This document shows, piece by piece, positions 3,981 through 63,633 of a stretch of DNA of 64,000 nucleotides. Numbering within the stretch: position 1 is the stretch's first letter; every line of letters starts with the position of its first letter. The DNA comes from Candidatus Nomurabacteria bacterium RIFCSPHIGHO2_01_FULL_40_20 (GTDB lineage Bacteria > Patescibacteriota > Minisyncoccia > Phycocordibacterales > UBA9973). A program made the position numbers and the translations under genes. A model generated the notes under the pieces. The model ran no database searches, was not told the origin of the DNA, and saw only the letters and a list, made by a program, of their open reading frames with translations. The stretch is taken from the NCBI GenBank assembly GCA_001786835.1, contig MFTO01000013.1, positions 1,002-65,001 of the forward strand, read 5' to 3'.

Positions 3981-4000
3981 TATGAATTAGTTTCTAGGTT

Positions 4001-5281: not shown

Positions 5282-5375
5282 ACTAACCTAAAAAGGCGCC
5301 TTTAGCAAAGAGCCCTATGGCTAAAGAGCCATATAAAGGTTGCAAAAGCGCTCTCTTTCTGCTAGAATTGTATTC

Positions 5376-6111: not shown

Positions 6112-6891
6112 ATGTCAGTCAACGTCACAACAGAGTTGGTCAAAGAACTCCGCGATGCGACTGGAATTTCGGTGATGCAATGCAGACGCGCGCTCATTGA
6201 GGCAGAGGGCGATATGAAAAAGGCGCTTGCGATATTAAAAAAAACAAGCTCCGATATTGCTCTAAAAAAAGCTGACCGAGTGGCAACGGACGGAGCTGTG
6301 ATGATAAAAACAAACGGCGCAAAAACTGTTCTTCTTGCTCTCCACTGTGAGACAGACTTCGTATCAAGAAATGAAGATTTCACTAACCTACTTTCTAGCC
6401 TTATAGATTTAGCGCTCACAAAAGGAATAGAGGAAATGAAGAAAGTAGCCAAAGATATGATAGACTCGGTAATCCAAAAAACCGGTGAAAAGATAGAGTT
6501 AGGCGAGGTATACGAAATCAGGGGTGAGGTTGTGGGTAGCTATGTGCACAACAATAAAATAGGAATCATCGTGTCACTCGTAGGTGGAAACCAAGAACTT
6601 GCCAAAGATATTGCCATGCACGTAGCCGCCATGAAGCCAGAATACATCACGGATAACGATATAAACGAAGAGACAAAAAAAACAATGACAGAGATATTTG
6701 AAAAGGAAGTAGCGAAAATAGACAAGCCCGAAGAAATAAAAAAGAAAATGCTGGAGGGTAAAATCAATACTTATTTTAAAGAAAAAACTCTAAAGAGTCA
6801 GCCATTCATAAAGAATCCTGATGAAACCGTAGGTCAACTGCTGGAGAGAAACAAAGCAAAGATAATAGAGGTCAAACGATACTTTATCTAA
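6112..6891 (+). CDS. tsf: Elongation factor Ts
   Basis: The N-terminal UBA-like segment LVKELRDATGISVMQCRRALIEAEGDMKKAL is present, and the gene is in the conserved rpsB-tsf arrangement. Confidence 0.9.
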   Translation: MSVNVTTELVKELRDATGISVMQCRRALIEAEGDMKKALAILKKTSSDIALKKADRVATDGAVMIKTNGAKTVLLALHCETDFVSRNEDFTNLLSSLIDLALTKGIEEMKKVAKDMIDSVIQKTGEKIELGEVYEIRGEVVGSYVHNNKIGIIVSLVGGNQELAKDIAMHVAAMKPEYITDNDINEETKKTMTEIFEKEVAKIDKPEEIKKKMLEGKINTYFKEKTLKSQPFIKNPDETVGQLLERNKAKIIEVKRYFI

Positions 6892-6903
6892 AAAGATATG
6901 AAT

Positions 6904-6986
6904 CCCGTTAGAAATCTTATATGTTGAAACTTTTAATTAAAATTAATATAACTACGGAAATGCAAAGCATTTCCTATTTCTAACGA
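6904..6986. repeat. Short element with 12-bp inverted termini CCCGTTAGAAAT...ATTTCTAACGAG abutting the ATG of the 6988 gene; it contains an internal perfect hairpin GGAAATGC-AAA-GCATTTCC
   Basis: The same termini recur at 20039-20100. Confidence 0.7.
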
Positions 6987-6987
6987 G

Positions 6988-7389
6988 ATGAATATATTTT
7001 TAATTTTATTTTTAATATCACTCGGAGGCATCGTCTTTATGATTTCTCGAAAAATGATTCTCTTTAAAAGAGGCACTGTGACGGCAAGTGGAGAATTTCC
7101 TTTTAAGACTCCGGAAATGGAAGAAATAAAATACATTATTGTAAAAAAAATAAAAAACTACGGATACGCCATTCTAATTTCAACTCTGCGTTTTTCGATA
7201 AAATCAACCCACTTCGCAAAGACAAAAAGCAAAGATTTAATAGAAAAAATTAAAACAAAATTTTATAAAAATGAAAAAGTAAATGAAGAGGTGAAAGAGG
7301 TCTCAAAATTCTTAAAAAGCGTGTCTGAATACAAAAATAAAATAAAAAAGATAAAGAGTAGAATAAAAGAAGAAGAGGGTATAGAATAG
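6988..7389 (+). CDS. Hypothetical membrane-anchored, Lys-rich protein
   Basis: It has an N-terminal hydrophobic helix followed by a K/E-rich low-complexity tail, and no recognisable domain. Confidence 0.35.
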   Translation: MNIFLILFLISLGGIVFMISRKMILFKRGTVTASGEFPFKTPEMEEIKYIIVKKIKNYGYAILISTLRFSIKSTHFAKTKSKDLIEKIKTKFYKNEKVNEEVKEVSKFLKSVSEYKNKIKKIKSRIKEEEGIE

Positions 7390-7400
7390 AAAAAAATACT

Positions 7401-7473
7401 GCCGGGGTAGCTCAACGGTTGAGCAACTGTTTTGTAAACAGTAGGTTGGAGGTTCAAATCCTCTCCCCGGCTC
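7401..7473 (+). tRNA. tRNA-Thr (anticodon UGU)
   Basis: A cloverleaf was folded by hand: acceptor GCCGGGG/CCCCGGC, D-stem GCTC/GAGC, anticodon stem ACTGT/ACAGT with loop TTTGTAA, T-arm GGAGG-TTCAAAT-CCTCT, discriminator T. Confidence 0.9.
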
Positions 7474-7521
7474 AAAAAAATTGACATAAACGTCCCTTTG
7501 TTTTAGAGTTACATTGAAGTA

Positions 7522-7998
7522 ATGTTGCTTCGAAAAATTAATAAAATTCTATACATCATGGAAAATTACACCGATTTAGATGTTAATAGAGTTATTGCCG
7601 ACCTTGAAGTACTTTCAGCAGAAATGAGTGCTCGCACTGGTGGACTTCTCCGTATGTTCTTAATTTCCTACAAAAATATCGAGAAACGTAAAATGAAAGA
7701 TGTGCCAAATGAGAACATAGTTGAAGCCAGTTTTGGAATGTCTTCCCAGCACATGTTTTTTTTCGCAATGAAGGAGAAAAGGTGTTTCATCAGCCAGCAC
7801 GGAGTTTTTAAGAAGGAAGGAGCAAGCGTCTTTGACCTGCCATCTGGTTCATCTTACTCGGATGAATCATGGAACAAAGCGATCGCGGTTTTCGGGGGTG
7901 CCGCTACATGCTTTGTAGAAGCGATAGAGAGTAGTAAGAGTCTCAAGGAGCTCGAATATAAGTTATTTTTTTCCACCACTCCTACACAAATAACTTAA
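7522..7998 (+). CDS. Hypothetical protein
   Basis: A 158-aa ORF is preceded by a TTGACA-17-TAGAGT promoter at about 7483-7511. I see no domain. Confidence 0.4.
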   Translation: MLLRKINKILYIMENYTDLDVNRVIADLEVLSAEMSARTGGLLRMFLISYKNIEKRKMKDVPNENIVEASFGMSSQHMFFFAMKEKRCFISQHGVFKKEGASVFDLPSGSSYSDESWNKAIAVFGGAATCFVEAIESSKSLKELEYKLFFSTTPTQIT

Positions 7999-27975: not shown

Positions 27976-28455
27976 CTATATTTTGTATGGCTTTGCTAAT
28001 TTAAATGTTTTGATGCAATCTTTCAACCTTATCTCATCCAAATATTTCAAAAAATCTTTCGGCAAGGGTGATGGTCCGACCCAAACACTTTTTTGAATCA
28101 TAATGTAACTAAATTTTTTCAAATGAAAACGAAACCACTCTCTTTCAGCTTTTTGAACTACTGGTATATCAAACATAACTATGAGATTTTTAGACAAATC
28201 AACCGTTGTTGGTCTTGAAAAAGATTTCAATGAATCTTCTTTTCTCTTGAGATACTTTTTACCGTTAGCGGTTATTATAAAGCCATTTAATTCTTTCTTA
28301 ATTAAATCATTTCGAGCCAAGCGGTCAGCACTAGAGCGCAGACTTCTCCTTGAAAAACTATTAAAACGAGGAATGCCGAAAAGGTTAACGGGTACACCTT
28401 TATACTTTATTTCTGTATTCCAAAGTTCTTTTAAAATTTCTTCCACCATAGACAT
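27976..28455 (-). CDS. Winged-helix plus PaaX-middle-domain/Cas2-like protein, paralog 1. The track start is 28488 (GTG inside a palindrome), but the likely start is ATG at about 28455 (MSMVEEIL...).
   Basis: The C-terminal half (LIVMFDIPVVQKAEREWFRFHLKKFSYIMIQKSVWVGPSPLP) resembles E. coli PaaX (WLLLL...VKKQLIWQGFGALAPSLMASP) and the Cas2 beta-alpha-beta core (YDV...QNSVFEC). The N-terminal half is wHTH-like. Its paralog is at 52547..53035. Confidence 0.6.
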   Translation of the reverse strand: MSMVEEILKELWNTEIKYKGVPVNLFGIPRFNSFSRRSLRSSADRLARNDLIKKELNGFIITANGKKYLKRKEDSLKSFSRPTTVDLSKNLIVMFDIPVVQKAEREWFRFHLKKFSYIMIQKSVWVGPSPLPKDFLKYLDEIRLKDCIKTFKLAKPYKI

Positions 28456-28482
28456 GGAAGAAGTATACTCTAAATAAGTTTC

Positions 28483-28516
28483 TGACACAAATTCTGCATA
28501 GGCAGAACTTGTGTCA
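28483..28516. repeat. Palindrome IR(b): TGACACAAATTCTGC-ATAG-GCAGAACTTGTGTCA, overlapping the -35 region of the paralog-1 promoter (-10 TATACT at 28463-28468, then a leaderless ATG)
   Basis: Read directly. Confidence 0.8.
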
Positions 28517-31517: not shown

Positions 31518-33497
31518 ATGAAAGAAAAAAGGAGAATTCTAGAGGGCACCATATCTATAAACTCCAAAGGCGTGGGCTATGTGGACTTGGGAGAAGAAAA
31601 AAGGCAAGGCAAAAAGAATGACCGAAAGACTGATGTGGAAATCGATTTCAAGCATTTGAAAACCGCGCTTCATGGAGACACGGTGGAAATAGTCCTCCAT
31701 CCGAGGTCTGGGGAGAGGCGAACGGGCGAAGTAGCGCGAGTCATTTCCCGCGCCAAGAATCGTTTTGTGGGAGTCTTGGAAAAAGACCCCGCCTCCTTCG
31801 GGGCAAGCAATGGAATATTCTTTCTTAAGCCGGATGATACAAAAATGTATACCGATATTCTGGTTCCGGAAAGCAAGCTTCACGGCGCCAAACCAAACCA
31901 AAAAATATTTGTGGAAATTGTTTCTTGGCAGGACCCGCGAAAAGCGCCAGTCGGTAAAGTGCTTAAAATCTTGGGGCGCCCCGGCGAGAATGACACCGAG
32001 ATGCACGCTATTGCGATTGAGAAAGGTTTTGATAGTGTTTTGCCAGAAGAAATCGAAAAAGAAGCGCAAAAAATCAAACAAGCGGGTTTAAAAAAAGAAG
32101 ATTATAAAGATCGTCGTGACTTTCGAAAAACTTTAACCTTCACTATAGATCCGTCTGATGCTAAAGATTTTGATGACGCTATTTCTTTTAAAAAAATAAA
32201 CGGCGGACTTTTTGAAATAGGTATCCATATCGCCGATGTCACTCACTATGTAAAAAAAGGTGGCGCCATAGACCTTGAAGCGCGGGAGAGAGGCACTTCG
32301 GTTTATCTCGTTGACCGGACCATCCCGATGTTGCCGGAAGTCCTTTCCAACGACCTGTGTTCCTTGGTCCCAGATAAAGATCGCTTTACTATGAGCGCGG
32401 TATTTGAAATGAACCAAAACGGAGAAGTTTTAAAAGAGTGGTTTGGCAGAACTGTGATTCATTCCCAAAAACGTTTTAGTTACGAAGAAGCCGAAAAAAC
32501 AATCAAGAATAAAAATCTGGCCCTACACGAGGAACTTTCGATACTCAATAATATCGCTAGAAAATTAACTAAACGAAGATTTGATAGTGGCGCCATTTCG
32601 CTCGATCAAGAAGAAGTAAAGTTTATGCTGGGTGAAGGAGGCCGTCCGATTAAAGTCATTAAAAAAGTCCGTGGAGACTCAAACAAGCTGATAGAGGAAT
32701 TTATGTTGCTCGCCAACAAGCGGGTGGCCGAGCTTTTATCTAAAGGAACTCATCAAAAAGTAAAAAGTCCGGCAGATGAGGGAATATTTCTTTACCGAGT
32801 GCACGACGTGCCAAGCAAGGAAAAAATGGAGGAGCTTGCTCATTTTTTAAAAAGCTTGGGCTACAACTTAAAACAAAAAAATGGCATTATTGAAAATCAT
32901 GATTTAAACAAGCTCCTACATACTCTAGATGGCAAGCCGGAGCAAGACACCGTCTCCCGCGCTATCGTCCGCTCCATGGCTAAAGCCATTTATTCCACCA
33001 AAAATATCGGCCACTACGGACTTGCTTTTGAATTCTACACTCACTTCACTTCTCCGATCCGGCGCTACCCCGACATAGTGGTACATCGGCTCCTCCTCGA
33101 GCACCTGGCAAATCGCAAAATAAATCCGTCCCATTTTAAAGAATACGAACAAATTTCAAGAACGACTTCGGAACAGGAAAAACGCGCCGCCGAAGCCGAA
33201 CGCGCTTCTATCAAATACAAACAGGTGGAATATATGTCTACCCGCCTCGGAGAAAAGTTTGAGGGTGTGATTAGCGGAATCACCGAATGGGGCATGTATG
33301 TGGAAGAATTGGAAACCAAATGCGAAGGGTTGGTGCGCACGCGGGATATGGGGGATGATTTTTATATCTTCAATGAAAAAAAACTCGAGCTCGTCGGCCA
33401 AAAAACGAAACGAAAATACCGCTTTGGCGATAAGGTAAAAATAAAAGTAAAGGGAGTTGATTTGGAACGCAAAACAATAGATTATATATTGGCATGA
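31518..33497 (+). CDS. rnr: Ribonuclease R (RNB-family 3'-5' exoribonuclease with cold-shock and S1 domains)
   Basis: The RNB catalytic motif is present (DPSDAKDFDDAISF, YLVDRTIPMLP), with a C-terminal S1 domain (GVISGITEWGMYVEL). Confidence 0.9.
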   Translation: MKEKRRILEGTISINSKGVGYVDLGEEKRQGKKNDRKTDVEIDFKHLKTALHGDTVEIVLHPRSGERRTGEVARVISRAKNRFVGVLEKDPASFGASNGIFFLKPDDTKMYTDILVPESKLHGAKPNQKIFVEIVSWQDPRKAPVGKVLKILGRPGENDTEMHAIAIEKGFDSVLPEEIEKEAQKIKQAGLKKEDYKDRRDFRKTLTFTIDPSDAKDFDDAISFKKINGGLFEIGIHIADVTHYVKKGGAIDLEARERGTSVYLVDRTIPMLPEVLSNDLCSLVPDKDRFTMSAVFEMNQNGEVLKEWFGRTVIHSQKRFSYEEAEKTIKNKNLALHEELSILNNIARKLTKRRFDSGAISLDQEEVKFMLGEGGRPIKVIKKVRGDSNKLIEEFMLLANKRVAELLSKGTHQKVKSPADEGIFLYRVHDVPSKEKMEELAHFLKSLGYNLKQKNGIIENHDLNKLLHTLDGKPEQDTVSRAIVRSMAKAIYSTKNIGHYGLAFEFYTHFTSPIRRYPDIVVHRLLLEHLANRKINPSHFKEYEQISRTTSEQEKRAAEAERASIKYKQVEYMSTRLGEKFEGVISGITEWGMYVEELETKCEGLVRTRDMGDDFYIFNEKKLELVGQKTKRKYRFGDKVKIKVKGVDLERKTIDYILA

Positions 33498-35395
33498 GAA
33501 ACTTTTGGCAAAAAATAAAATTCGGCGCTTTTACACTTCTGGCTATCGTGTTGGGAGTTTTTGTCACTTCGTTCGCTTTCGACCATATAGAAAATTTAGC
33601 TTTTCAAAGTAAAGAACGCGCTGTGGCCGACACTCTAACTTTGGAAGAATTATCAAATACACCCGCTGAGATAAAAGAAGAAACACAAAAATATTTTTAT
33701 TTCACCAAAGACGAAGAAGCCAAACCGAAAGTCTCAGCCGAGGCTTACATCGTCGGTGACCTGAATACTGGAGAGGTAATCGTAGCAAAGAACGCAGACC
33801 AAAAGTTCCCCATTGCTTCTGTCTCTAAGCTCATGACCGCGCTGGTCTCCAAAGAACTCGCAAACGAGGATGACACTGCAAAAGTGAGCGCAAGCGCGCT
33901 CTCTACCTATGGCGAGAACGGCGGACTTCACGCGGGAGAGAAAATCAAAATAAAAGACCTCTTTTATCCCCTGCTACTTGAGTCTTCAAACGACGCTGCT
34001 GAAATTTTGGCAGAATTTTTTGGACGCGAGATTTTCATCCGAAAATTAAACCAACAATCTTTAAAACTAAAAATGAATTCTACATCATTCTTTGACCCGA
34101 GTGGGCTCTCTAGGGAAAATCAATCCACTGTCTCTGATTTATTTAAATTATCTGGTCATCTGTATCAAAACGAATCAGAACTCCTTTCTATCAGTAAAAC
34201 CAAAAGCTACGATAACAAAAAACACATCTGGTTTAGCATCAACCAATTCTTGCATAAAAAAAATTATGTCGGAGGAAAAAGCGGATTCACTGACCCAGCC
34301 GGGCAAACGGTCATATCTATTTTTGATATGCCCTTGGCAGAAGAAACTACTCGACCTATAGGTATAGTATTGCTTAAGAGCCAAGACCGTGTCCGCGATG
34401 TGGAAAATATTTTAAATTATCTAACAAAATATGTTTACTACGGAGGACGCACGGACGCCACCGCAGACTGGATAGCAGAGCGCCTCGACATCGGAGACTT
34501 GCGAGAACCGGATTATGCGCGACTCTCTTTCTTGGGCGATATGATGCTTGATCGAGGAGTGCGAAGTTCTGTCGCTAAAAATTTCGCCGGCAATTATTCC
34601 GCTCTTTTTGATAATATGGAAATTTTAAAAAACTCTGACATAGTATTTGCCAATCTTGAAGGTCCGGCGTCAGATAAAGGCGAGGATCAAAAAAATCTTT
34701 ACTCCTTCCGTATGGACCCGTCCGTTATACCGGCTATCAAGGGTGGAGGGGTAAGTATTGTAAATGTGACAAACAATCACGTGGGTGACTGGGGTCGCGA
34801 GGCATATGCGGATACTCTGGCGCGCCTAAAAGAAAATGAAATTCTCTACACCGGCGGAGGCACAAAGGCGCAAGCAGAAGCTCCGACAATTGTAGAAAAA
34901 AATGGATTAAAAATCGGTTACTTAGGATTTTCAGATGTAGGTCCAAATGGAATGGTAGCCAGAGAGGATGAGGCAGGAGTGCTACTTGCGAATAATCCGC
35001 GTTTTGAAGAAATTATAAAGAGCGCGTCGGAACAAGTGGACTTTTTAGTAGTCTCCTTCCACTTCGGTGAAGAATATAAAAATACTCACAACGACCGCCA
35101 AGAATATCTCGCTCACACTGCGATAGATAATGGCGCCCGCATCATCGTCGGCCATCATCCGCATGTTATGCAAGATACCGAAGTTTATAAAAACGGATTT
35201 ATTATTTATTCACTCGGCAACTTTATCTTTGACCAACGCTTCTCGCCGGAGACATCAAAAGGGACACTATATGAAATCGAAGTCCGGCAAGACGGCTCCA
35301 TGACAGAGAAGAAAAATATTATAGAAACCAACCGCGTCTTTCAGCCGGAGAAAGTAATCAAGGGTAAAGAGGAGGTTATAAAATTTACTCAATAG
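33494..35395 (+). CDS. Fusion of a D-alanyl-D-alanine carboxypeptidase (serine-type PBP, S11) with a CapA/PGA_cap metallophosphatase-like domain
   Basis: The N-terminal half has SVSKLMT (SxxK), SGN-like, and KSGFT (KTG). The C-terminal half (ANLEGPAS..., VSFHFGEEY, GHHPHVMQD, SLGNFIFDQ) matches CapA capsule-synthesis family proteins. Confidence 0.75.
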   Translation: MRNFWQKIKFGAFTLLAIVLGVFVTSFAFDHIENLAFQSKERAVADTLTLEELSNTPAEIKEETQKYFYFTKDEEAKPKVSAEAYIVGDLNTGEVIVAKNADQKFPIASVSKLMTALVSKELANEDDTAKVSASALSTYGENGGLHAGEKIKIKDLFYPLLLESSNDAAEILAEFFGREIFIRKLNQQSLKLKMNSTSFFDPSGLSRENQSTVSDLFKLSGHLYQNESELLSISKTKSYDNKKHIWFSINQFLHKKNYVGGKSGFTDPAGQTVISIFDMPLAEETTRPIGIVLLKSQDRVRDVENILNYLTKYVYYGGRTDATADWIAERLDIGDLREPDYARLSFLGDMMLDRGVRSSVAKNFAGNYSALFDNMEILKNSDIVFANLEGPASDKGEDQKNLYSFRMDPSVIPAIKGGGVSIVNVTNNHVGDWGREAYADTLARLKENEILYTGGGTKAQAEAPTIVEKNGLKIGYLGFSDVGPNGMVAREDEAGVLLANNPRFEEIIKSASEQVDFLVVSFHFGEEYKNTHNDRQEYLAHTAIDNGARIIVGHHPHVMQDTEVYKNGFIIYSLGNFIFDQRFSPETSKGTLYEIEVRQDGSMTEKKNIIETNRVFQPEKVIKGKEEVIKFTQ

Positions 35396-37983: not shown

Positions 37984-38080
37984 ACCTTTAGTATAGCAAA
38001 ATATAAGATAGAAAAAGCAAAACCATGCTAGCTTGATTTGTTCGTGCCTTAATGTTAGTTTAAAGAAAAATCATGTACTT

Positions 38081-38566
38081 ATGAAAACGATAAACATAAC
38101 ATCAGGGTCAAAAGACCCTATCGCCTATATCTTAAGTAACTTAGCCCATACACCCTTCTCCTACGGCGGATACACTTTCAAATGCGTTGAAGCTCCGCTT
38201 CAAGGTATAAAAATTGAAAACAAGGTAGAGAGGGAAAGAGTATTTGCTATGGACGGACTAAGCGCGCTTAAAATCGGCAGAAAGATTACGCGGGCAGTAA
38301 AGGACGGTGAAGAAAGATTTGTATATTGGGAGGGAAAGAAAATTCCATATAACTCTCAAGACCACAGATTGCTCATTGTATCTTTTATCGGAGAAAAAGT
38401 TCGACAAAATCCTGAAGTTCAAAAAGCGTTGATAGAAACAAAAGATAAATTCATCTACCACGATGTTGGACCTGAGCATCCAAAAACTTCTTTGCCGGAA
38501 AAACTCTTTATAGAAATTCTGCTTGCAAAAAGAAAAATTCTTTTAAAATTGAAAAATCTAAAATGA
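38081..38566 (+). CDS. NADAR (DUF1768, YbiA-like) domain protein. The track start is 38033, but the likely start is MKTINITSG at 38081.
   Basis: INITSGSKDPIAYILSNLAHTPFSYGGYTFKCVEAPLQGIK follows the NADAR N-terminal pattern (..F....d....LSNF...PF...G..F.svEhyfQa.K). Confidence 0.55.
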   Translation: MKTINITSGSKDPIAYILSNLAHTPFSYGGYTFKCVEAPLQGIKIENKVERERVFAMDGLSALKIGRKITRAVKDGEERFVYWEGKKIPYNSQDHRLLIVSFIGEKVRQNPEVQKALIETKDKFIYHDVGPEHPKTSLPEKLFIEILLAKRKILLKLKNLK

Positions 38567-42529: not shown

Positions 42530-43284
42530 TTTTTTATTTTTAATGCGTTTTGGGCGGCACTCTGTTCGGCCTCTTGCTTACTCTTGCCCTTGCCTTCGGC
42601 GACAAGTTCGCTTTCAAATAGGATACCCACGGTAAAATGTTTGTCATGGTCAGGACCTACTTCGTGAAGCACTTTGTAGGAAGGGGTGACCCCCACGAAC
42701 TCCTGCGCTTTCTCCTGCACCAAGCTCTTGGCATCGCGCCAGAGCTTTTTGGAAACAATTTCTTCGGTCTTGGTGAGGAGAGTTCCAGAGACAAATTCAT
42801 CTGCCTCGTCATATCCTTGGTCTAGAAAAAGCGCTCCGACATATGCTTCGTAAGTATTCGCCAGGATATACTGCCTGGCTTTACCTGTATCTTTAGCTTC
42901 GCCTTTGGAGAGCAAAAGAAATTCATTCATACCGATTTTGTCCGCCACTTCTGCAATGATGACTGCATTTACCAGCGCCGAACGGAGAGCTGTCAATTCC
43001 CCTTCATTGTGGGTGGGATACTTTTTATATAAAAAGTCGGTGACAATAAGCTCGAGCACTGCGTCGCCTAGAAACTCCAAGCGTTCGTTGTGAGAAAGCC
43101 CGGTATTACCGTTCTCATTGATAAAAGAGCGGTGAATAAAAGCTTGCTTGAGCAGATTTTTATCCTTAAAAGTTATTTTTGTTTTTTTCTCAAAACCTGA
43201 AAAATCTATTGTCTTGTTCATGGCGGTGTTATTTTTGTTTAGAAATAATTTCGACTGCTTTCCCAATAAGCGGAATAATGTCAT
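42517..43284 (-). CDS. rnc: Ribonuclease III
   Basis: HRSFINE...NERLEFLGDAVLELIVTDFLY is the RNase III signature, with a C-terminal dsRBD. Confidence 0.9.
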   Translation of the reverse strand: MTLFRLLGKQSKLFLNKNNTAMNKTIDFSGFEKKTKITFKDKNLLKQAFIHRSFINENGNTGLSHNERLEFLGDAVLELIVTDFLYKKYPTHNEGELTALRSALVNAVIIAEVADKIGMNEFLLLSKGEAKDTGKARQYILANTYEAYVGALFLDQGYDEADEFVSGTLLTKTEEIVSKKLWRDAKSLVQEKAQEFVGVTPSYKVLHEVGPDHDKHFTVGILFESELVAEGKGKSKQEAEQSAAQNALKIKNWLD

Positions 43285-44152
43285 TATAAATGCGAAGTTC
43301 CGGAATCTCCGATAATTGGAACCATTTGGCGCCGTCGAGCCCCCCCGAAGACTCTAAAGTAAGTTCGCGATATTCACTCTCGGCCAGAAAGTAAGAAACT
43401 TGTTTTAGGGTTTTGCCACGCTCGGGGTGCGTTGCCACATACTCATTCTCGCCCAATTTTTTAATAATTGTTATATCAAGGCCGATCTCTTCTTTGATTT
43501 CTCCTATAGTCCCAGTCTCCACATCTTCACCCTCTTCAATATGCCCCTTGGAAAGTGTCCAGTAACCAAAAACATCATGCACTAGGGCAAAATAAGTGAT
43601 GCCATCCTTTTTCGCATAAACCAAAGCTCCCCCCAATTTTTCTTTCGGCAGTTTGGTAATGTCTACCGGTTCTTCTGTCTTTTTCTTTTTGCTGGTTTCT
43701 TCTTTGCCGGGCTCGCCTATTTCTTTATATACCGCCCCCAAAACTCCGTTTACAAATTTGCTGGAATTTTCTCCGCCAAAAGTCTTGGCGAGTTCTATGG
43801 CTTCATTAATCGCCACCTTCGGAGGCACTTGAGTGCGATCGCCGAAAAGGAGCTCGGTCAATCCTATTCGCAAAATATTTCTGTCCACTGCTGAGATTTT
43901 GTCTAGTGGCCAGTCCGGCGCCGCTTTTTCTATAATCTCGTCCACTACTTTTTGCTTTTTCAAAACTTGCTCAGTCAAAGCAAGTACAAAAACATCATCT
44001 TCAAGTCCGGGAGCGAATTCTTTTAAATTTCTATCTAAAACTTTTTTTATTTCTTGGTCATCCCAAGGAGCGCCACTGCGTCCAGCGGGAAAGAAATCCC
44101 ACTCAAAGAGAGTCTGCAGAACTATTGATCTTGAAAGGTGCCTGTTTGCCAT
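43229..44152 (-). CDS. nusB: NusB antitermination factor fused to a C-terminal NUDIX hydrolase domain
   Basis: The N-terminal about 150 aa are NusB-like (RSIVLQTLFEWDF...ILRIGLTELLF...NEAIELAKTFGGENSSKFVNGVLGAV). The C-terminus carries the Nudix box SKGHIEEGEDVETGTIGEIKEEIGL. Confidence 0.8.
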   Translation of the reverse strand: MANRHLSRSIVLQTLFEWDFFPAGRSGAPWDDQEIKKVLDRNLKEFAPGLEDDVFVLALTEQVLKKQKVVDEIIEKAAPDWPLDKISAVDRNILRIGLTELLFGDRTQVPPKVAINEAIELAKTFGGENSSKFVNGVLGAVYKEIGEPGKEETSKKKKTEEPVDITKLPKEKLGGALVYAKKDGITYFALVHDVFGYWTLSKGHIEEGEDVETGTIGEIKEEIGLDITIIKKLGENEYVATHPERGKTLKQVSYFLAESEYRELTLESSGGLDGAKWFQLSEIPELRIYNDIIPLIGKAVEIISKQK

Positions 44153-44505: not shown

Positions 44506-44597
44506 TCGTACTACCATAATGAGTTCAATCTTAGCATATATTTTCTAAATTGCAAAAAAGCTATAAAAACGGAAAAATTTATGATAATATAGGTTTT

Positions 44598-46379
44598 ATG
44601 GACAAAAGAGAGAAAAAGAGCGAAAAATTGCAAAATCAAAGGCACACTTTGGCGCACCTTTTGGCTTCCGCCGTGCTCGAGCTTTATCCGGACACCAAGA
44701 CTACTATTGGTCCCTCGATAGATGACGGTTTTTATTATGATTTTGATTTTTCTTCCCCTATCGGAGACAATGACCTACGGAAGATTGAGAAGAAGATGCG
44801 AGAGAATTTAAAATCTTGGACAGAGTTTACGCATGAAGAAAAGACTGCCGAAGAAGCGAAAGAATATTTTAAAGACAACCTATACAAACTAGAATTAATA
44901 GATGAAGTAGAGCAAAGGCGATCCGCCGACGACAAGGCTTTGGCGGACAAGGAAAAAATTACATTTTATACCTGTGGCAATTTTACCGATTTGTGTCGAG
45001 GTGGACACGTGGAAAACCCGAAAAAAGAAATTGCACCAGATTCTTTCCAACTCGACCGCCTCGCCGGCGCTTATTGGCGCGGAGACGAAAAAAATAAAAT
45101 GCTCACCCGTATTTACGGACTCGCGTTTGATACAAAAGAAGAGCTTTCGGCATACACAATACAGAGAGAAGAAGCTATAAAGAGGGACCACAAAAAGCTG
45201 GGTAGAGAATTAGATATTTTTTTATTTTCGGACTTAGTTGGTAGCGGTCTTCCTCTTTGGACCCCAAAAGGAACATTGATGCGAAATATACTCGACGATT
45301 TCGTTTGGAGCTTAAGAGCTAAATACGGCTATGAAAAAGTAGAAATTCCTCATATTACAAAAAAAGATTTATATATAACTAGCGGACATTGGGATAAATA
45401 TGCGGATGATTTGTTTAGAATCACCACTAGGGAGGGGCACGAATTCGCGATGAAACCTATGAATTGCCCGCATCATACTCAAATCTACAATCGCAAACAA
45501 TGGAGCTATAAAGAGTTACCTCAGCGTTATGCCAGCACTACTATGTGCTACCGCGATGAGCAATCTGGAGAACTTTCGGGACTTTCCCGCGCCAGAGCTT
45601 TTACCCAAGATGATGCTCATGTCTTCTGCAGAATCACAGATGCTAAAGAAGAAATCCAAAAAATTTGGAACATTGTTCATTCTTTTTATGACGCTTTCGG
45701 ACTAGAACTAAAATTGAGATTGTCTCTCCGTGATCCAGCTATTCCGGAAAAATATTTGGGCAATAAAAATCATTGGGACAAAGCAGAGGCTGTGTTAAGA
45801 GAGATTGCAAAAGAAAATAAAATTGAATATTTTGAGGCCATAGGTGAAGCGGCTTTTTATGCCCCCAAACTCGACTTTATGGCAAAAGATTCCATAGGTA
45901 GAGAATGGCAAGTAGCGACTATTCAGCTCGATGTAAATATGCCCGAGCGTTTTGATTTGTATTGTATAAATGAGCGTGGTGAACAAGAACGCATTGTGAT
46001 GATTCACGCCGCTATCATGGGCTCTATTGAAAGATTTTTGTCTATAATAATTGAGCACTACGCGGGCGCCTTCCCTACTTGGCTCGCGCCAGTGCAAGTA
46101 TCTATCGTGCCTGTGCGGGAAAATCATATTGAAGAAGCGCAAAAAGTTTATAATACATTAAAAGAAAATGACATCCGCGTAGAGCTAGAAGATGGTGACG
46201 AATCCCTCGGCAAGCGTATCAATCACGCCAAAGCTCAAAAAATTCCTTACGTCGTAGTCCTAGGCGACAAAGAAGTCTCTTCCGGTACGCTCACCATCGA
46301 AGGCCGAGAATCTAAAACAGAAATGAGCGCTGAGGACTTTCTCGCAAAATTAAAAGAGGAAATAAAAGAGAAAAAATAA
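44598..46379 (+). CDS. thrS: Threonyl-tRNA synthetase lacking the N-terminal TGS domain. The track start is 44550, but the likely start is MDKREK at 44598, preceded by an extended -10 TGATAATAT.
   Basis: HTLAHLLASAV...GPSIDDGFYYDFD (editing domain), CRGGH, class II motifs (FRNE-like, HRAILGSIERF) and a C-terminal anticodon-binding domain. Confidence 0.9.
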   Translation: MDKREKKSEKLQNQRHTLAHLLASAVLELYPDTKTTIGPSIDDGFYYDFDFSSPIGDNDLRKIEKKMRENLKSWTEFTHEEKTAEEAKEYFKDNLYKLELIDEVEQRRSADDKALADKEKITFYTCGNFTDLCRGGHVENPKKEIAPDSFQLDRLAGAYWRGDEKNKMLTRIYGLAFDTKEELSAYTIQREEAIKRDHKKLGRELDIFLFSDLVGSGLPLWTPKGTLMRNILDDFVWSLRAKYGYEKVEIPHITKKDLYITSGHWDKYADDLFRITTREGHEFAMKPMNCPHHTQIYNRKQWSYKELPQRYASTTMCYRDEQSGELSGLSRARAFTQDDAHVFCRITDAKEEIQKIWNIVHSFYDAFGLELKLRLSLRDPAIPEKYLGNKNHWDKAEAVLREIAKENKIEYFEAIGEAAFYAPKLDFMAKDSIGREWQVATIQLDVNMPERFDLYCINERGEQERIVMIHAAIMGSIERFLSIIIEHYAGAFPTWLAPVQVSIVPVRENHIEEAQKVYNTLKENDIRVELEDGDESLGKRINHAKAQKIPYVVVLGDKEVSSGTLTIEGRESKTEMSAEDFLAKLKEEIKEKK

Positions 46380-49276: not shown

Positions 49277-49371
49277 TTACCCATAAAGTATAGCAATTTT
49301 AACCCGGCTTCGCAAGTCTTTTTTAGCGGAAAAACCTTGATTTTTTAACCTTTTTTCTCTACACTAGATAG

Positions 49372-50502
49372 ATGTCAAACTATGTTATAACCTCCTCGGA
49401 AGAAGAGAAATTATTAAAGGATTTGGAGCCTAAAACTGACGCTCATTCTATGCGCCTAAAGCGCTATTTCTCAATGCCAGATCTTTCCCGTACAGATGGA
49501 AGTCCGCTGTATGAAATTGTAAAAAGAGCCAAAGAAGTACCATCACTTTCAGATTTTGACGACATCAAAGTACCCGAAATTGTACCGACAAATATTCTTT
49601 TTGATTTATTCAATATGGGATCGGATCATCCGGCGCGTAGCCCGTCGGACACTTACTACGTGGATAAGAAAAATGTCCTTCGCACTCACGATACGGTTTT
49701 TTGGTATTACTATCTCAACCATCCGGAAATAAAAAAAAGAATTGCAAACAAGGAAACCTTAGGCGCAGTTTGTTATGGAAAAGTTTACCGCAAAGACGAA
49801 ATAGATCGTCGGCATATGAACGTCTTTCACCAGTTCGGTGGGTGGTTGATAGGACCGGACGATAAAGAAAAAATTACGCCCGAAGATTTAAAAAATACTC
49901 TAAAAGAAATAGCTGTAAATATTTTTGGTAAGGTAAATTTAAGATTCAACGACGATGATTTTCCATATACCGACCCATCATTTGAAATGGAAGCGGAGAT
50001 AAATGGTGAATGGATTGAAATGCTCGGTTGCGGAATGGTGCGAAAGAATGTACTAAAAGATTTAGGGCTCGAGGGCTACCATGGTTGGGCTTTCGGGTTT
50101 GGACTCGAGCGTCTGGCTATTGCTTCTATGGAGCTTCCGGACATTCGATTACTTTGGTCAGAGGACCCACGAGTGACAAGTCAGCTAAAACTCGGTCATA
50201 AATTTGAAGAAGTCTCCAAATACCCGCCGGCGCTTCGCGATATTTCTTTTGTAGTGAAAAACGATTTTATCCCGAACGATTATTTTGACTTTGTGCGCGA
50301 ACTCGCGCCGGGGTTAGTGGAAGAAGTGTCGCTCATAGATAAATATGAAAATGCGGAAAAATTCGGCGCGGATAAAATAAGCTATGCCTACCGAGTGACC
50401 TACCGCTCGCTCGACAAAACCTTAACGAGCGAAGAAGTAGACACTCTGCATAAGCGCCTTGAGACCGAAACTGCCCAAGACTTCGGCGCAACGATTCGCT
50501 AG
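49372..50502 (+). CDS. pheS: Single-chain phenylalanyl-tRNA synthetase-like protein: a PheRS-alpha catalytic core fused to a C-terminal FDX-ACB (PheT B8-like) anticodon-binding domain
   Basis: HPARSPSDTYYV, LRTHDT, YRKDEIDRRHMNVFHQFGGW (motif 2) and WAFGFGLERLAI (motif 3) mark the catalytic core. The C-terminal YPPALRDISFVV...YRVTYRSLDKTLTSEEVD...FGATIR matches the FDX-ACB pattern. A TTGATT-17-TACACT promoter sits 6 nt before the ATG. Confidence 0.7.
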   Translation: MSNYVITSSEEEKLLKDLEPKTDAHSMRLKRYFSMPDLSRTDGSPLYEIVKRAKEVPSLSDFDDIKVPEIVPTNILFDLFNMGSDHPARSPSDTYYVDKKNVLRTHDTVFWYYYLNHPEIKKRIANKETLGAVCYGKVYRKDEIDRRHMNVFHQFGGWLIGPDDKEKITPEDLKNTLKEIAVNIFGKVNLRFNDDDFPYTDPSFEMEAEINGEWIEMLGCGMVRKNVLKDLGLEGYHGWAFGFGLERLAIASMELPDIRLLWSEDPRVTSQLKLGHKFEEVSKYPPALRDISFVVKNDFIPNDYFDFVRELAPGLVEEVSLIDKYENAEKFGADKISYAYRVTYRSLDKTLTSEEVDTLHKRLETETAQDFGATIR

Positions 50503-50509
50503 AATTTTC

Positions 50510-51232
50510 CTATGCCGCTATCCTCATGCTATTGTTTTGGTCAATACCTGTTGTGCCAAGAGTTGGCTTTTTTGAAATTCTATACCTAATTTTTTCATAA
50601 AGATCAGCTATCTTTTGCGTAACTAGAGAAGCTTTTGTCATCGGTGAAACTTTTGCTTCCCTAAGCTCTTCTTCAATTTGAAGTTGGTATAATTTAATAC
50701 TGCTCGCGATGAAAGATATATCAAACAATTCATTATTTACTCCGAGTTTCTCATCAAGGGCTATTTGTCTTATATAATTAGAATTTTTAGGATCAGTAAG
50801 GTCAATGCCTGGAAAAGAAATCTTGTCTTTGAGTTGAGGACTTGAAATAATTGCAGATATTTTTTCCTTATACTGTTTTTCAAGATCTATGATAATAGAA
50901 GACCTGCCTTCAATAGTTGACGAGACTTTTTGTTTATAATCTGTTTTTGAAGTTTCATCCTCTCTTTTTTTAATATCATTCCATTGAGCATCAGTATATC
51001 CATCTAATTTTTCTTCAGGTAAAGATTTGCTTTGAAAATAGCGATTTACCCAATCTATTGCGTATTGCTTACTTTTGTTCTTTATTTCTGAATTCTCTTG
51101 TGAAATAGCAAGAGCTTCATTTGATAGTTCGCCACCTTTAAGCAAAACTTTTAGTTTTTCTTCCGATTCTTTTTTTATTGATTCTAAAGAAGCATTGTCG
51201 ACATTTCCTTTTTCTATGTTAGTGAATTGCAT
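50510..51232 (-). CDS. Hypothetical protein
   Basis: A 240-aa ORF with no recognised domain. Confidence 0.4.
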   Translation of the reverse strand: MQFTNIEKGNVDNASLESIKKESEEKLKVLLKGGELSNEALAISQENSEIKNKSKQYAIDWVNRYFQSKSLPEEKLDGYTDAQWNDIKKREDETSKTDYKQKVSSTIEGRSSIIIDLEKQYKEKISAIISSPQLKDKISFPGIDLTDPKNSNYIRQIALDEKLGVNNELFDISFIASSIKLYQLQIEEELREAKVSPMTKASLVTQKIADLYEKIRYRISKKPTLGTTGIDQNNSMRIAA

Positions 51233-52546: not shown

Positions 52547-53035
52547 CTATCTTTTTCTTGTTTCAAATCCTTTTGCCAGTTTAAAGGTCTGGATATTGTC
52601 TTTGATCTTTATACGCTTGATGTAATCTAAAAAATCCCGCGGCAGTGGCGAGGGTCCAACCCAGACGCTCTTTTGAATCATCACAAAGCCAAACTTTTTC
52701 AAATGCCAGCGAAACCATTCCCTCTCCGCCTTCTTCTCTTCCGGAATATCATACATCAATAATAAATTCTTCGGCGCCTCTTTATCAAACTTATTTGAAA
52801 ATTGTTTTAAAGAATCTATTTTTCTTTCAATATATTTTCTTCCTTTGGGGGTAATCCGTAAAAAATCATTTTGCTCGTCAACAAATCCATTTTTATACAT
52901 ATAAAATAAAGTCCCTCGCAGAGACCCCTTGGAATAGTCCTTGAATTTTGGAATACCGAAAAGGTTAGTTGAAACCCCTTTGTATCTCAGTGTGGTTTTA
53001 CTTAATTCTTCTAAGATGTTATAAATCAACCCCAT
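52547..53035 (-). CDS. Winged-helix plus PaaX-middle-domain/Cas2-like protein, paralog 2
   Basis: LLMYDIPEEKKAEREWFRWHLKKFGFVMIQKSVWVGPSPLPRDF is about 70% identical to paralog 1 across the C-terminal half. A TATAAT sits 6 nt before the ATG, with a palindrome immediately upstream. Confidence 0.6.
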   Translation of the reverse strand: MGLIYNILEELSKTTLRYKGVSTNLFGIPKFKDYSKGSLRGTLFYMYKNGFVDEQNDFLRITPKGRKYIERKIDSLKQFSNKFDKEAPKNLLLMYDIPEEKKAEREWFRWHLKKFGFVMIQKSVWVGPSPLPRDFLDYIKRIKIKDNIQTFKLAKGFETRKR

Positions 53036-58962: not shown

Positions 58963-61646
<2,684 letters not shown>

Positions 61647-61656
61647 GATGTTTCTA

Positions 61657-62256
61657 TTATATTGACGGCATCCAATCGAAAAGATAGCTGGAGAAAGATA
61701 CTTTATAATCGTTCGTCCCGCGGAACCAGTGCACTGTGGAGGTAATTTTCTTTTCTTTTTGGTTTACATCTTCTACTAGAATAACTCGCGCAAAGCCGGA
61801 GCCGACATTGCCGACATCCTGATCATAACTATAACCGTCCCCTTCGCTATAATTGAGCTCTTGGCACGGAAATCCGCCCGACGGAGTGCAGTCGTATATT
61901 TCAATCTCTGTAATTGGCGGAACAAGAGAATTTTGATCGTAAAGATAGCAACCACTCCCTCCTGCCGAAGCTCCCGCTCCACAATTCACAATAGCAGTTT
62001 GAAAATCCGTCCAACCAGTATCGCCTCCGTAGAGCACATAAGTATCTCGCAAACTGCGCATAAGCTCTATCCCTTCTTGGGCGAGATAAGAAGCGACTAA
62101 TTTGTTTTTGGAATGATTGGCATCCGATATGCCTCCGCCCAAGACCACCAGCATCACAAGAACCGACAGGGTAAAAATAGAAATCGCGACAAGCGTTTCT
62201 ACTAGGGTAAACCCGGTAGTTATCTCTCTATTTATTTGTTTAAAATGTTTTTTCAT
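61657..62256 (-). CDS. Type IV pilin / pseudopilin (prepilin-type N-terminal methylation motif)
   Basis: TTGFTLVETLVAISIF is the class III signal peptide (G/FTLxE). Confidence 0.6.
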   Translation of the reverse strand: MKKHFKQINREITTGFTLVETLVAISIFTLSVLVMLVVLGGGISDANHSKNKLVASYLAQEGIELMRSLRDTYVLYGGDTGWTDFQTAIVNCGAGASAGGSGCYLYDQNSLVPPITEIEIYDCTPSGGFPCQELNYSEGDGYSYDQDVGNVGSGFARVILVEDVNQKEKKITSTVHWFRGTNDYKVSFSSYLFDWMPSI

Positions 62257-62258
62257 TT

Positions 62259-62981
62259 TTAAGGCGCGTTTTCAACATCTATCAACCTCTGCGAGACTGT
62301 AGTTTGAAGTGAAAATGGTGTTATAATGTCTTTATATTTTATCTCACCAATAAGATGTATTTTTATTAAGGGTTGCTGGAAATCTCCGTCAATCGGCGGT
62401 TTTGCACCAATAACCTCAAAACCAGAACTGTCCTTGATTGTTATCTCTTCCAAATTCATCTGCACGAAAGTAAGCCCGCCGTTGGTTGATTTTTCAATAT
62501 TGTATTTTGTGGGGTTTACACTATCTTGCCATATCCTATATACCCATTGGTCATTTGTAGCATCCTCTGCCCCATCTCCATGCGCTTCCTCAAAAACTAT
62601 CACTCCCCCGTCAAAGCAATCGAGAGGATCATCTAAACTGTCGCTCTGTGGATCTTGGCTATCGATCCAAATTTCCGTGTCATAACATCTATAATTATAC
62701 CCGGTGCGCAGATTGCGCGACATGTCTTCCATAATAAAAGATAGATTGTCCATGATGGAACGCTGGTCTTCTGTCTTGTTGTGCACTAGGTTCGCATTGA
62801 GAAGAGCCCCAGTGCCAAAAACCACTATAATCACAAAAAGACCGATGGATATCATAGTTTCTATGATAGTAAACCCAGTAGTGAGTTTTGGCGAAGCGCT
62901 TTTAGCGCGCAATTCTATTGCATCGCCAAAATCTACTAACTGGGTAAACCCTTTGTTTAATTTTTTGTTTGCTTTCTCCAT
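62259..62981 (-). CDS. Type IV pilin / pseudopilin with a long N-terminal leader
   Basis: TTGFTIIETMISIGLF. Confidence 0.6.
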   Translation of the reverse strand: MEKANKKLNKGFTQLVDFGDAIELRAKSASPKLTTGFTIIETMISIGLFVIIVVFGTGALLNANLVHNKTEDQRSIMDNLSFIMEDMSRNLRTGYNYRCYDTEIWIDSQDPQSDSLDDPLDCFDGGVIVFEEAHGDGAEDATNDQWVYRIWQDSVNPTKYNIEKSTNGGLTFVQMNLEEITIKDSSGFEVIGAKPPIDGDFQQPLIKIHLIGEIKYKDIITPFSLQTTVSQRLIDVENAP

Positions 62982-62982
62982 T

Positions 62983-63633
62983 TTAATTTAATTGAATCCT
63001 GCCGGAAGGATAAACTTTTATCAGAGAGCTGGTGCCTTGAGGAGAAGAAATGGTAATTTGCAGAAAATCTATAATTGTAGTGCCGTCTGCAATTTGGGCG
63101 CATATAGAATCACCGGTACACCTAAGAGTCGCCCCGGAATCCGGTCTGGTGAAAGTTATGTGAGCCTCACTTATTTCTGTAGCTGTAGCTCCTATAAAAA
63201 TACTAATATCGCTCACAAAGTTGCCCTTGGTGATGGTTATGGTTTCTAGGCATTCAACACTGTTGCCAGGATCATTACTTGGACAAGGGATGTAAGGACC
63301 GTCAAACACTTTACCTTGATCTAGGTCTGCAAAATAAAGAAATGCGCTTGGACTATCTGAAGTAAATAACAGCCCATAGGAAGGCTTCCAAGGATCTGCG
63401 CTAGGCATACTTAAGACAGGTAATTTGCCGGTAGTTGACTCCTTCTGCGCCTGCACAAATTTGAGCGCAATGTCGTTCGCCAGGTTTTTGATATCCACTT
63501 TTATCTGAAATTCTTTATAGCTGAAAAGTCCAATAGCAGACATTATGGAGAAAATACTCAAAACCACTATGAGCTCTACATAAGTCATACCACTATTGGA
63601 ATTTTTAATTTTAAATTTTAAATTTTTAGCCAT
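62983..63633 (-). CDS. Type IV pilin / pseudopilin
   Basis: SGMTYVELIVVLSIFSIM. Confidence 0.6.
   Translation of the reverse strand: MAKNLKFKIKNSNSGMTYVELIVVLSIFSIMSAIGLFSYKEFQIKVDIKNLANDIALKFVQAQKESTTGKLPVLSMPSADPWKPSYGLLFTSDSPSAFLYFADLDQGKVFDGPYIPCPSNDPGNSVECLETITITKGNFVSDISIFIGATATEISEAHITFTRPDSGATLRCTGDSICAQIADGTTIIDFLQITISSPQGTSSLIKVYPSGRIQLN

Follow-up and report, generated by a model that had tools for sequence, protein, structure and literature searches.

How does a bacterium charge its tRNA-Phe if its phenylalanyl-tRNA synthetase (PheRS) consists of a single chain? The large proofreading beta subunit is generally described as needed by bacteria. The forms of PheRS usually described are the bacterial (alpha-beta)2, the archaeal/eukaryotic (alpha-beta)2 and the mitochondrial monomer, the last being an alpha catalytic module joined to domain B8 (PMC3275996). 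We analysed a 64,000-nucleotide stretch of contig MFTO01000013.1 from the Candidatus Nomurabacteria genome RIFCSPHIGHO2_01_FULL_40_20 (hereafter the window), in which one gene encodes a PheS-type catalytic core and an FDX-ACB (PheT B8-type) anticodon-binding domain in a single polypeptide of 376 amino acids (aa). The original prediction placed this open reading frame (ORF) exactly, at 49372–50502 on the + strand with an ATG start, and left two readings of it: a reduced monomeric PheRS in a streamlined genome, or an extra paralogue. We conclude, with a probability of about 0.8, that it is a housekeeping gene and very probably the only PheRS of its Paceibacterial host, a monomer-type enzyme in which the beta subunit and the B3/B4 editing site have been lost and the amino acid pocket has been rebuilt. 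An organellar-type PheRS with a remodelled pocket as the sole enzyme of a bacterial class appears to be new.

Profile, sequence and fold comparisons all bear out the organellar-type architecture that had been proposed, with a PheS core and an FDX-ACB domain in one chain. Two Pfam profiles match over their full length. The tRNA-synt_2d profile scores 181.8 bits against a cutoff of 19.8, placing the protein among class II PheRS-type enzymes, and FDX-ACB scores 75.9 bits against a cutoff of 31.1 over profile positions 1–94 of 94, placing its C-terminus in that family. The strings on which the prediction rested (YPPALRDISFVV, TLTSEEVD and FGATIR) are all present, and class II motif 2 (YRKDEID...FHQ) and motif 3 (GWAFGFGLERLA) were both located. 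An extension of 43 aa stands in place of the long coiled-coil N-domain of canonical PheS, and a Pfam profile search found no Phe_tRNA-synt_N domain in the protein. The C-terminal part aligns to positions 693–798 of the 798-position bacterial PheT model, that is, to its last 106 positions. The fusion junction falls at one common position in Paceibacterial, organellar-type and viral single-chain forms, and nine FDX-ACB residues (Ser282, Asp290, Phe293, Arg309, Glu317, Asp323, Ser337, Arg341 and Arg376) are kept across all single-chain groups.

The closest known structure is the human mitochondrial enzyme (mtPheRS). It is the best solved-structure match by sequence (E about 1e-57); with bacterial PheS chains the match is limited to the core (E about 1e-30), with PheT chains to the final ~100 residues. 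An AlphaFold2 model built from a 53-sequence alignment is confident (mean pLDDT 94.5, pTM 0.90), and among PDB entries it comes closest to human mtPheRS, over the whole chain, in the closed form 3CMQ (TM 0.79/0.73, root-mean-square deviation 3.3 Å). Against the open, tRNA-bound form 3TUP the TM value is 0.59; the model thus represents a closed, 3CMQ-like state. Its C-terminal domain consists of strands 287–296, 316–325 and 335–344 and helices 301–311 and 353–371, and superposition on the whole mtPheRS chain confirms that this domain has the ferredoxin-like beta-alpha-beta-beta-alpha-beta fold of FDX-ACB.

With organellar PheRS (human FARS2, PDB 3CMQ and 3TUP; yeast MSF1; TIGR00469) the window enzyme shares the two-domain chain of a PheS module and a PheT B8 domain, the lack of an editing domain and, judging from the genome-level data below, probably the lack of a beta subunit. 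It differs in having neither the long insertion after motif 2 of organellar-type sequences nor a transit peptide; unlike mtPheRS, it would serve as a bacterial cytoplasmic enzyme. With canonical (alpha-beta)2 PheRS (TIGR00468 and TIGR00472; E. coli 3PCO, T. thermophilus 1PYS) it shares a homologous core, the class II motifs, B8 and Phe-pocket residues such as Ala240. Missing from the chain are the Phe_tRNA-synt_N coiled coil, domains B1–B7 and with them the B3/B4 editing site, and the partner PheT that goes with a canonical PheS is encoded neither in the window nor in the syntenic loci. Viral single-chain PheRS (e.g. Yasminevirus VBB18274.1) has the same architecture and junction, but the viral proteins are shorter (about 345–357 aa), keep an acidic residue at position 156 and often have Gln at 111.

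Curated family models place the protein close to several families and inside none of them. The top NCBIfam match is NF051887, SrmL (‘PheS-related mystery ligase’), at 223.3 bits against a curated cutoff of 300; it spans both domains (query 62–366, profile 33–345 of 349), and none of the 10 representatives tested reaches that cutoff. To judge from its sequence profile, SrmL appears to be another bacterial single-chain PheS-like protein. The mitochondrial model TIGR00469 (pheS_mito) gives 220.8 bits against a cutoff of 258.35 and the canonical PheS model TIGR00468 gives 161 bits against 237.45. Among the relatives, the type-B protein P0121 (see below) just passes the pheS_mito cutoff at 264.3, and viral and organellar-type proteins score 260–434. 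The window enzyme has an organellar-like architecture and would work most like mitochondrial PheRS, yet it stands outside the pheS_mito and SrmL equivalog families; within the single-chain PheRS clade it is best taken as a bacterial branch of its own.

The host is a bacterium of the Parcubacteria/Paceibacteria, within the Candidate Phyla Radiation (CPR), and the gene is one of its syntenic core genes. Housekeeping genes in the window include rpoB, rpoC, rpoD, dnaG, trmD, the genes for RNase R and RNase III, a NusB-NUDIX fusion, thrS, gyrB, truB and ligA. The order SMC-rnc-nusB-thrS-gyrB-[PheRS]-(rhodanese)-addA-like-terC-truB-ligA recurs in other metagenome-assembled genomes (MAGs), among them the 813-kb contig Ga0376277_0000039 and GCA_001785985.1, a Nomurabacteria genome. 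Between MAGs the PheRS is 78–81% identical, close to GyrB (82%); the values are 51–64% for threonyl-tRNA synthetase (ThrRS), 65–67% for LigA, 60–64% for TruB and 61–64% for the AddA-like helicase. Because of this shared synteny and gyrB-like identity, the PheRS gene behaves as a vertically inherited, strongly constrained core gene. That the 64-kb window holds no pheT was already part of the original prediction and stands: E. coli PheT finds no match by tblastn, and a Pfam search of 30 of the larger ORFs finds no pheT. E. coli PheS matches the single-chain gene only, with no second pheS in the window, and no pheT was found in the syntenic loci of other MAGs. No tRNA-Phe gene was found within the window or the related loci.

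The neighbouring thrS gene merits a separate remark. The window ThrRS (44550–46379) is 609 aa long and carries the tRNA_SAD editing-domain signature. The syntenic ThrRS of close Nomurabacteria MAGs (6622–7866 in each of the loci L003, L004 and L005) is a 414-aa protein with core and anticodon domain and without tRNA_SAD. From this difference, ThrRS seems to be a second synthetase that is losing its editing domain in the Nomurabacteria lineage.

Single-chain enzymes of this kind are widespread. Two homologue searches, one with the window protein and one with P0121, the nearest representative of the 50% clusters (58% identical to the window PheRS), yielded more than 6,000 scored homologues apiece from 8,000 candidates; the best 120 of each were listed. 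All matches listed in both searches are two-domain proteins of 345–448 aa. Those closest to the window protein are 72–83% identical to it and mostly 374–393 aa long, with a few truncated or extended exceptions; the names among them are Candidatus Nomurabacteria, Paceibacterota, Parcubacteria and ‘Patescibacteria group’. The listed matches to P0121 span the full 345–448 aa, most being 378–390 aa; several lie on single contigs of 588–914 kb, P0312, P0334, P0355 and P0329 for instance on contigs of 914, 899, 888 and 588 kb, and the names in this set include Paceibacterota, Minisyncoccia, Liptonbacteria, Yanofskybacteria and Parcubacteria. The two sets differ at three pocket positions. Type A, the window family, has Asp107/Trp111/Gly156 in 118 of 119 scorable sequences, and type B has Thr/Trp/Asp at the same positions in 109 of 110. 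Since the P0121 search produced a second large set of two-domain Paceibacterial proteins, the single-chain architecture extends through the whole class Paceibacteria, in thousands of proteins and two pocket variants.

Two published genome compilations bear on whether the single-chain enzyme is the only PheRS of its host. One is a per-genome count of ‘Phenylalanyl tRNA synthetase alpha’ in Anantharaman et al. 2016 (PMC5079060, Supplementary Data 4). P0007 is encoded in RIFCSPLOWO2_01_FULL_42_17, a genome of 670 kb in 9 scaffolds that is 99.9% complete, and P0046 in ..._02_FULL_44_12; the count is 1 for both. Of the 19 Nomurabacteria rows covered here, 18 have 1, one has 0 and none has 2. JGI annotates the protein as ‘PheRS alpha chain’ and UniProt as ‘phenylalanine--tRNA ligase’ (NCBI has ‘hypothetical protein’). 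Because the single-chain protein is already annotated as PheRS by JGI and UniProt, a second, canonical PheS would raise the count to 2. A companion archaeal-type PheRS was considered and rejected: it would carry B5 and count as a second alpha.

In PheT, B5 and FDX-ACB lie on one polypeptide. The anvi’o CPR training matrix (supplement to PMC8672522) covers 797 public CPR genomes, of which 137 were taken here, and includes the Pfam markers B5 (beta subunit only), FDX-ACB and Phe_tRNA-synt_N (canonical alpha only). FDX-ACB is present in 84 of the 137 genomes, and B5 is missing from 15 of these 84 (18%). Phe_tRNA-synt_N occurs in 0 of the 15 B5-less genomes versus 45 of the 69 B5-positive ones (Fisher p = 1.7e-6), and marker completeness is equal in the two sets (28.1 and 28.7, respectively). 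Because the B5-less genomes are all without Phe_tRNA-synt_N at equal completeness, a discrete ‘FDX-ACB only’ genotype exists in CPR, as a sole single-chain PheRS predicts. No tables at the level of KO terms (K01889/K01890) were found in the supplements of PMC9166423 or PMC8672522.

A further 24 of the 137 genomes have B5 and FDX-ACB without Phe_tRNA-synt_N. Candidatus Berkelbacteria fits this class: locus L043 carries adjacent pheS (2698–3378) and pheT (3398–5656) genes, with a beta subunit of 752 aa and a PheS of only ~226 aa without the N-terminal coiled coil. Since Berkelbacteria keeps the ancestral pheS-pheT but with an alpha subunit that has no coiled coil, the data suggest a series of PheRS reduction in CPR, (B5, FDX-ACB, Phe_tRNA-synt_N) passing from (1,1,1) through (1,1,0) to (0,1,0), in which the Berkelbacterial short-PheS state may stand midway. 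When GTDB genomes were scanned with a B3/B4-B5 profile, the best 80 loci included a single CPR genome, that of Berkelbacteria.

The window enzyme retains the residues of a PheRS active site: His106, Arg140, Asp142, Gln154, Phe197-Pro-Tyr-Thr200, Ala240, Gly242 and Arg247. Arg140 (motif 2) and Arg247 (motif 3) are invariant, and Ala240 aligns with the Ala of E. coli GFAFGMG. These residues, the single PheS-like count and the conservation of the gene indirectly support a functional PheRS (EC 6.1.1.20). By analogy with mtPheRS (PMC3275996), the PheS core would bind ATP and Phe and form Phe-AMP, and the fused B8/FDX-ACB domain would read the GAA anticodon of tRNA-Phe. Since the apo form, as in the model, is closed, with B8 packed on the core, tRNA binding would require a large rotation of B8 on a hinge like that of mtPheRS (PMC3275996). 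Loss of the beta subunit would also have taken away the post-transfer editing of Tyr- or meta-tyrosyl (m-Tyr)-tRNA-Phe.

The pocket is altered where mtPheRS handles m-Tyr. In the human enzyme the m-Tyr hydroxyl is held by Gln124 NE2 (2.7 Å) and Glu159 OE2 (2.6 Å) (PMC3275996); mtPheRS does not edit, and m-Tyr is bound only about 5-fold less well than Phe (PMC3275996, Safro-lab review). In the alignment, human Gln124, Glu159 and Thr120 correspond to Trp111, Gly156 and Asp107 of the window PheRS, so that both hydroxyl ligands are substituted. The motif-2 strand reads FHQFGG, versus FHQMEG in E. coli and FHQLEA in human mtPheRS, and the helix after His106 reads HDTVFW, versus H(T/M)(S/T)xxQ elsewhere. 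Position 156 is Gly in 118 of 119 scorable close family members and Glu or Asp in 84 of 86 viral and organellar-type representatives, the two strays being one Gly and one Ile. At position 111 these 86 have Gln in 55 cases and Trp in none; E. coli has Glu (156) and Gln (111). Trp111 is common to type A, type B and three of six deeper outliers (P0125, P0126 and P0130), and across all sequences compared Asp107 and Gly156 occur together 126 times, Asp107 never with an acidic residue at 156, and Gly without Asp twice. This distribution indicates that Gln → Trp at 111 is the older change and that Glu → Gly together with Thr → Asp defines type A. Asp107 and Trp111 lie at i and i+4 at the start of model helix 107–115, and so on one helix face. 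Because human Gln124 and Glu159 contact the same ligand atom, and given the common helix face, Asp107 plausibly points into the pocket beside Gly156.

In the type-A pocket, both hydrogen-bond partners for a meta-hydroxyl would thus be lost and a bulky Trp gained, and towards the amino group of the substrate Asp107 possibly fills the electrostatic part once played by Glu. The pocket would go on binding that amino group while no longer offering the contacts by which hydroxylated Phe analogues are favoured. We tentatively propose, at somewhat less than even odds, that the specificity of the Trp111/Gly156/Asp107 pocket replaces the lost editing, with quality control shifted to initial selection. 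It is also quite conceivable, though not probable, that the protein is the sole PheRS but that the three substitutions are neutral or compensate structurally (e.g. by filling space after loss of the alpha/beta interface), mistranslation being tolerated and discrimination against m-Tyr and Tyr unaffected. Some reduced-genome bacteria are reported to tolerate mistranslation, an example being the editing defects of Mycoplasma PheRS. Gln → Trp predates Glu → Gly and occurs in type B, where position 156 is still acidic; a single origin of the Asp/Gly pair is probable; and the ThrRS of related MAGs, likewise without the editing-domain signature, suggests a general relaxation of proofreading. Against this reading, the Trp111 and Gly156 changes fall precisely on the pair of positions whose residues are reported to hold the m-Tyr hydroxyl, both substitutions are fixed in at least 95% of the family, and the other single-chain groups are almost always acidic at 156 and have Gln at 111 in about two thirds of cases.

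Several points weigh against a sole PheRS with a pocket rebuilt for fidelity. The protein scores under the curated cutoffs of pheS, pheS_mito and SrmL alike. The alpha count of 1 assumes that the authors’ annotation took the single-chain protein as ‘PheRS alpha’. The anvi’o matrix is anonymised, and we infer that its B5-less genotype belongs to Paceibacteria; moreover, 23 of the 137 genomes have none of the three markers, so draft genomes are noisy. The window is part of a genome, and it is by extension from its relatives that the host organism would be without pheT. A search with Berkelbacteria PheT gave a saturated list, its best 120 matches all Berkelbacteria-like, and is uninformative for Paceibacteria. 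The pairing of Asp107 with Gly156 probably reflects a single ancestral event, which makes it weak statistical evidence of coupling, and the exchange of an otherwise nearly universal PheRS Glu could, on sequence grounds, mean altered chemistry.

The second option of the original prediction was an extra paralogue; read as an SrmL-like, PheS-related ligase working outside translation or in an unknown role, beside a canonical PheRS elsewhere in the genome, it now looks very unlikely. SrmL is indeed the best NCBIfam match, NCBI labels the family ‘hypothetical protein’, the nearly universal motif-2 Glu has become Gly, and a distant relative in an Oligoflexia MAG, in a non-housekeeping context, may well be such a paralogue. 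But the SrmL score is well under its cutoff, the Phe-pocket and ATP residues are all kept, conservation is at gyrB level within housekeeping synteny, the Nomurabacteria genomes counted show one PheS-like gene and not two, and CPR genomes without B5 and the PheS N-domain exist. Synteny, conservation and the genome-level counts therefore favour the first option, the reduced monomeric PheRS. Most improbable is a change of substrate, with a different amino acid from Phe being loaded onto tRNA-Phe or onto some other tRNA. For it stand the pocket, which has lost Glu and Gln and gained Asp, and a score under all three equivalog cutoffs. Against it, the Phe-specificity elements FPYT and GWAFGFG (with Ala240) are intact, no cell can do without a PheRS and these genomes count no further candidate, and type-B relatives with the conventional acidic residue share the same genomic and phylogenetic niche.

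The Oligoflexia protein itself (MAG GCA_019694465.1, L009 10001–11245) is a 414-aa single-chain PheS+FDX-ACB protein, 39% identical to the window PheRS, with an SrmL score of 253 against 300. Its neighbours are M20 peptidase, GCS2, MR_MLE and beta-lactamase genes. As these are not housekeeping surroundings and the bacterium lies outside the CPR, the protein is probably a genuine paralogue.

To place the single-chain enzymes relative to canonical PheS, we built a neighbour-joining tree of the core (our own numpy implementation; 173 sequences, 197 columns, 200 bootstraps). The sample comprised 104 single-chain proteins (Paceibacteria A and B, six outliers, 41 short proteins and 44 long organellar-like proteins) and 69 canonical PheS of many phyla, including CPR Berkelbacteria. 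All 104 single-chain proteins split from the 69 canonical PheS at 100% bootstrap in this distance-based tree, whose canonical sample is without Alphaproteobacteria and Cyanobacteria and in which the gap in mean distances is modest (1.15 versus 1.22). Paceibacteria A and B form a 100% clade of their own; the placement of this clade among the other single-chain groups is poorly supported (48%). A tree of the FDX-ACB domain (92 columns) has no resolving power, the domain being too short. A 2-residue insertion (query 162–163) and a 1-residue deletion (near query 210) occur in all single-chain groups and never in canonical PheS. The 100% split, the two shared indels and the common fusion junction together suggest one origin of single-chain PheRS in Paceibacteria, organellar-type and huge-phage/giant-virus forms; convergent change after loss of the alpha/beta interface is a possible alternative source of the clade signal.

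The short single-chain group (about 345–357 aa) is viral. Two members, P0280 and P0160, lie on contigs of 341 kb and 160 kb with phage-like gene content, and 48 IMG/VR contigs (L091–L134 among the loci) carry the short form; many of these are 200–540 kb long, several are GVMAG giant-virus bins and one is 1.47 Mb. The short viral proteins pass the pheS_mito cutoff (260–308 bits) and cluster with organellar-type sequences. The Paceibacterial type was not found in IMG/VR; with its housekeeping synteny, this led us to reject a mobile or viral origin of the window copy. We also rejected ‘core-only’ representatives as a seed for a CPR PheS/PheT pair: these are truncated eukaryotic gene models (Zizania) or giant-virus genes (Yasminevirus).

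Given these viral genes of pheS_mito type, one may ask whether viruses had a part in how mitochondrial PheRS arose. A bolder scenario, which we regard as speculative and on balance unlikely, is that the fusion of alpha core and B8 arose once and that organellar PheRS shares a single-chain ancestor with the Paceibacterial and viral enzymes rather than descending from the endosymbiont pheS-pheT. In that case a virus or a CPR-like bacterium would have passed the enzyme horizontally to mitochondria, and Paceibacteria would be the only known cellular lineage with it as sole cytoplasmic PheRS, its pocket having evolved for fidelity without editing. The phage-type mitochondrial RNA polymerase is a parallel proposed case.

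If the monomeric enzyme is indeed the sole PheRS of Paceibacteria, the beta subunit and its Tyr/m-Tyr editing site would be dispensable for free-standing cellular translation, and these bacteria would offer a natural experiment in fidelity without editing. The closest prokaryotic and viral relatives of mitochondrial PheRS would be in hand, making its origin testable, and inhibitors against bacterial alpha/beta PheRS would not apply to these organisms. The Trp111/Gly156/Asp107 pocket could serve PheRS engineering or the understanding of FARS2. Marker sets with PheT-specific domains (such as Pfam B5, a column of the anvi’o matrix) would underestimate the completeness of these genomes. On the practical side, NCBI currently calls these genes ‘hypothetical protein’. 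Databases otherwise treat the family implicitly, under the name PheRS in UniProt and as ‘alpha’ in single-copy marker sets. The full-text literature searched yielded no account of SrmL or of single-chain PheRS in bacteria, though literature beyond that collection may hold one; PMC13622651 mentions pheS only as a counter-selection marker.

Table 1. Features of the single-chain PheRS gene in the window, and two viral counterparts. Positions are those of the window unless a locus is named.
Feature	Position	Strand	Details
Single-chain PheRS gene	49372..50502	+	ATG start, 376 aa plus stop codon, without internal stops
Promoter-like element, weak (putative)	49337..49365	+	TTGATT 49337-49342, 17-nt spacer, TACACT 49360-49365
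N-terminal helical extension (aa 1-43)	49372..49500	+	Model helices aa 9-18 and 24-34; further helix 45-54 just beyond
Class II PheS-type catalytic core (aa 44-271)	49501..50184	+	Pfam tRNA-synt_2d (PF01409), E 2e-53
Pocket segment His106-Asp107-Thr108...Trp111	49687..49704	+	From alignments; start of model helix 107-115
Motif 2 (KVYRKDEIDRRHMNVFHQFGG)	49780..49842	+	Arg140, Asp142, Gln154 kept; Gly156 in place of conserved Glu/Asp
FPYT, aromatic wall of Phe pocket	49960..49971	+	FPFT in E. coli and human
Motif 3 (GWAFGFGLERL)	50083..50115	+	Ala240, Gly242, Arg247 (near-)invariant
Fusion junction and short linker (aa 272-281)	50185..50214	+	PheS C-terminus (...RV..QL), then B8 domain (KFEEVSKYP...)
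FDX-ACB (PheT B8-type) anticodon-binding domain (aa 282-376)	50215..50499	+	Pfam PF03147, E 3.5e-21
Short single-chain PheRS gene, huge-phage-like	L007 10001-11047		341-kb contig
Short single-chain PheRS gene, huge-phage-like	L010 10001-11065		160-kb contig

The features of the gene are listed in Table 1. Homologues of 375–377 aa cover 99–100% of the window protein, which supports the chosen start codon. A pseudogene or artefact was considered and rejected, the ORF being intact, the model confident and the homologues conserved in their thousands. The promoter-like element upstream was found by direct reading; it matches the consensus at 8 of 12 positions, falls below the scan threshold and is only putatively a promoter. 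Its TACACT ends 6 nt upstream of the ATG. Because there is no Shine-Dalgarno sequence, the PheRS mRNA may be leaderless. Immediately downstream, a 240-aa ORF without Pfam match (50510–51232, − strand) separates PheRS from the rhodanese-like gene. In L003–L005 the rhodanese gene directly follows PheRS, so this ORF looks like a lineage-specific insertion.

Several other observations concern the neighbourhood and the lineage. In Supplementary Data 4 of PMC5079060, 13 of the 19 Nomurabacteria rows covered here score 0 for ‘Histidyl tRNA synthetase’, RIFCSPLOWO2_01_FULL_42_17 with its 99.9% completeness among them; the histidyl enzyme may be highly divergent or replaced in this lineage. Two fusions in the window are kept in related MAGs: the NusB + NUDIX hydrolase protein (43229–44152, −) and a D-Ala-D-Ala carboxypeptidase (Peptidase_S11) joined to PGA_cap (33494–35395, +). 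Small PaaX_M/Cas2-like proteins are encoded at 27976–28488 (−) and 52547–53035 (−), and one is syntenic in another MAG (L001 6004–6576); no CRISPR array or other cas genes were seen near them. Downstream of ligA, four consecutive ORFs of 177, 199, 240 and 216 aa (61113–63633, −) have no Pfam match, and at the equivalent position L001 (19863–21155) carries ORFs of 131, 216 and 197 aa, likewise without match. Finally, a 177-aa protein (38033–38566, +) matches Pfam Phage_30_3 (bacteriophage protein GP30.3; E 6.5e-18) in chromosomal surroundings.

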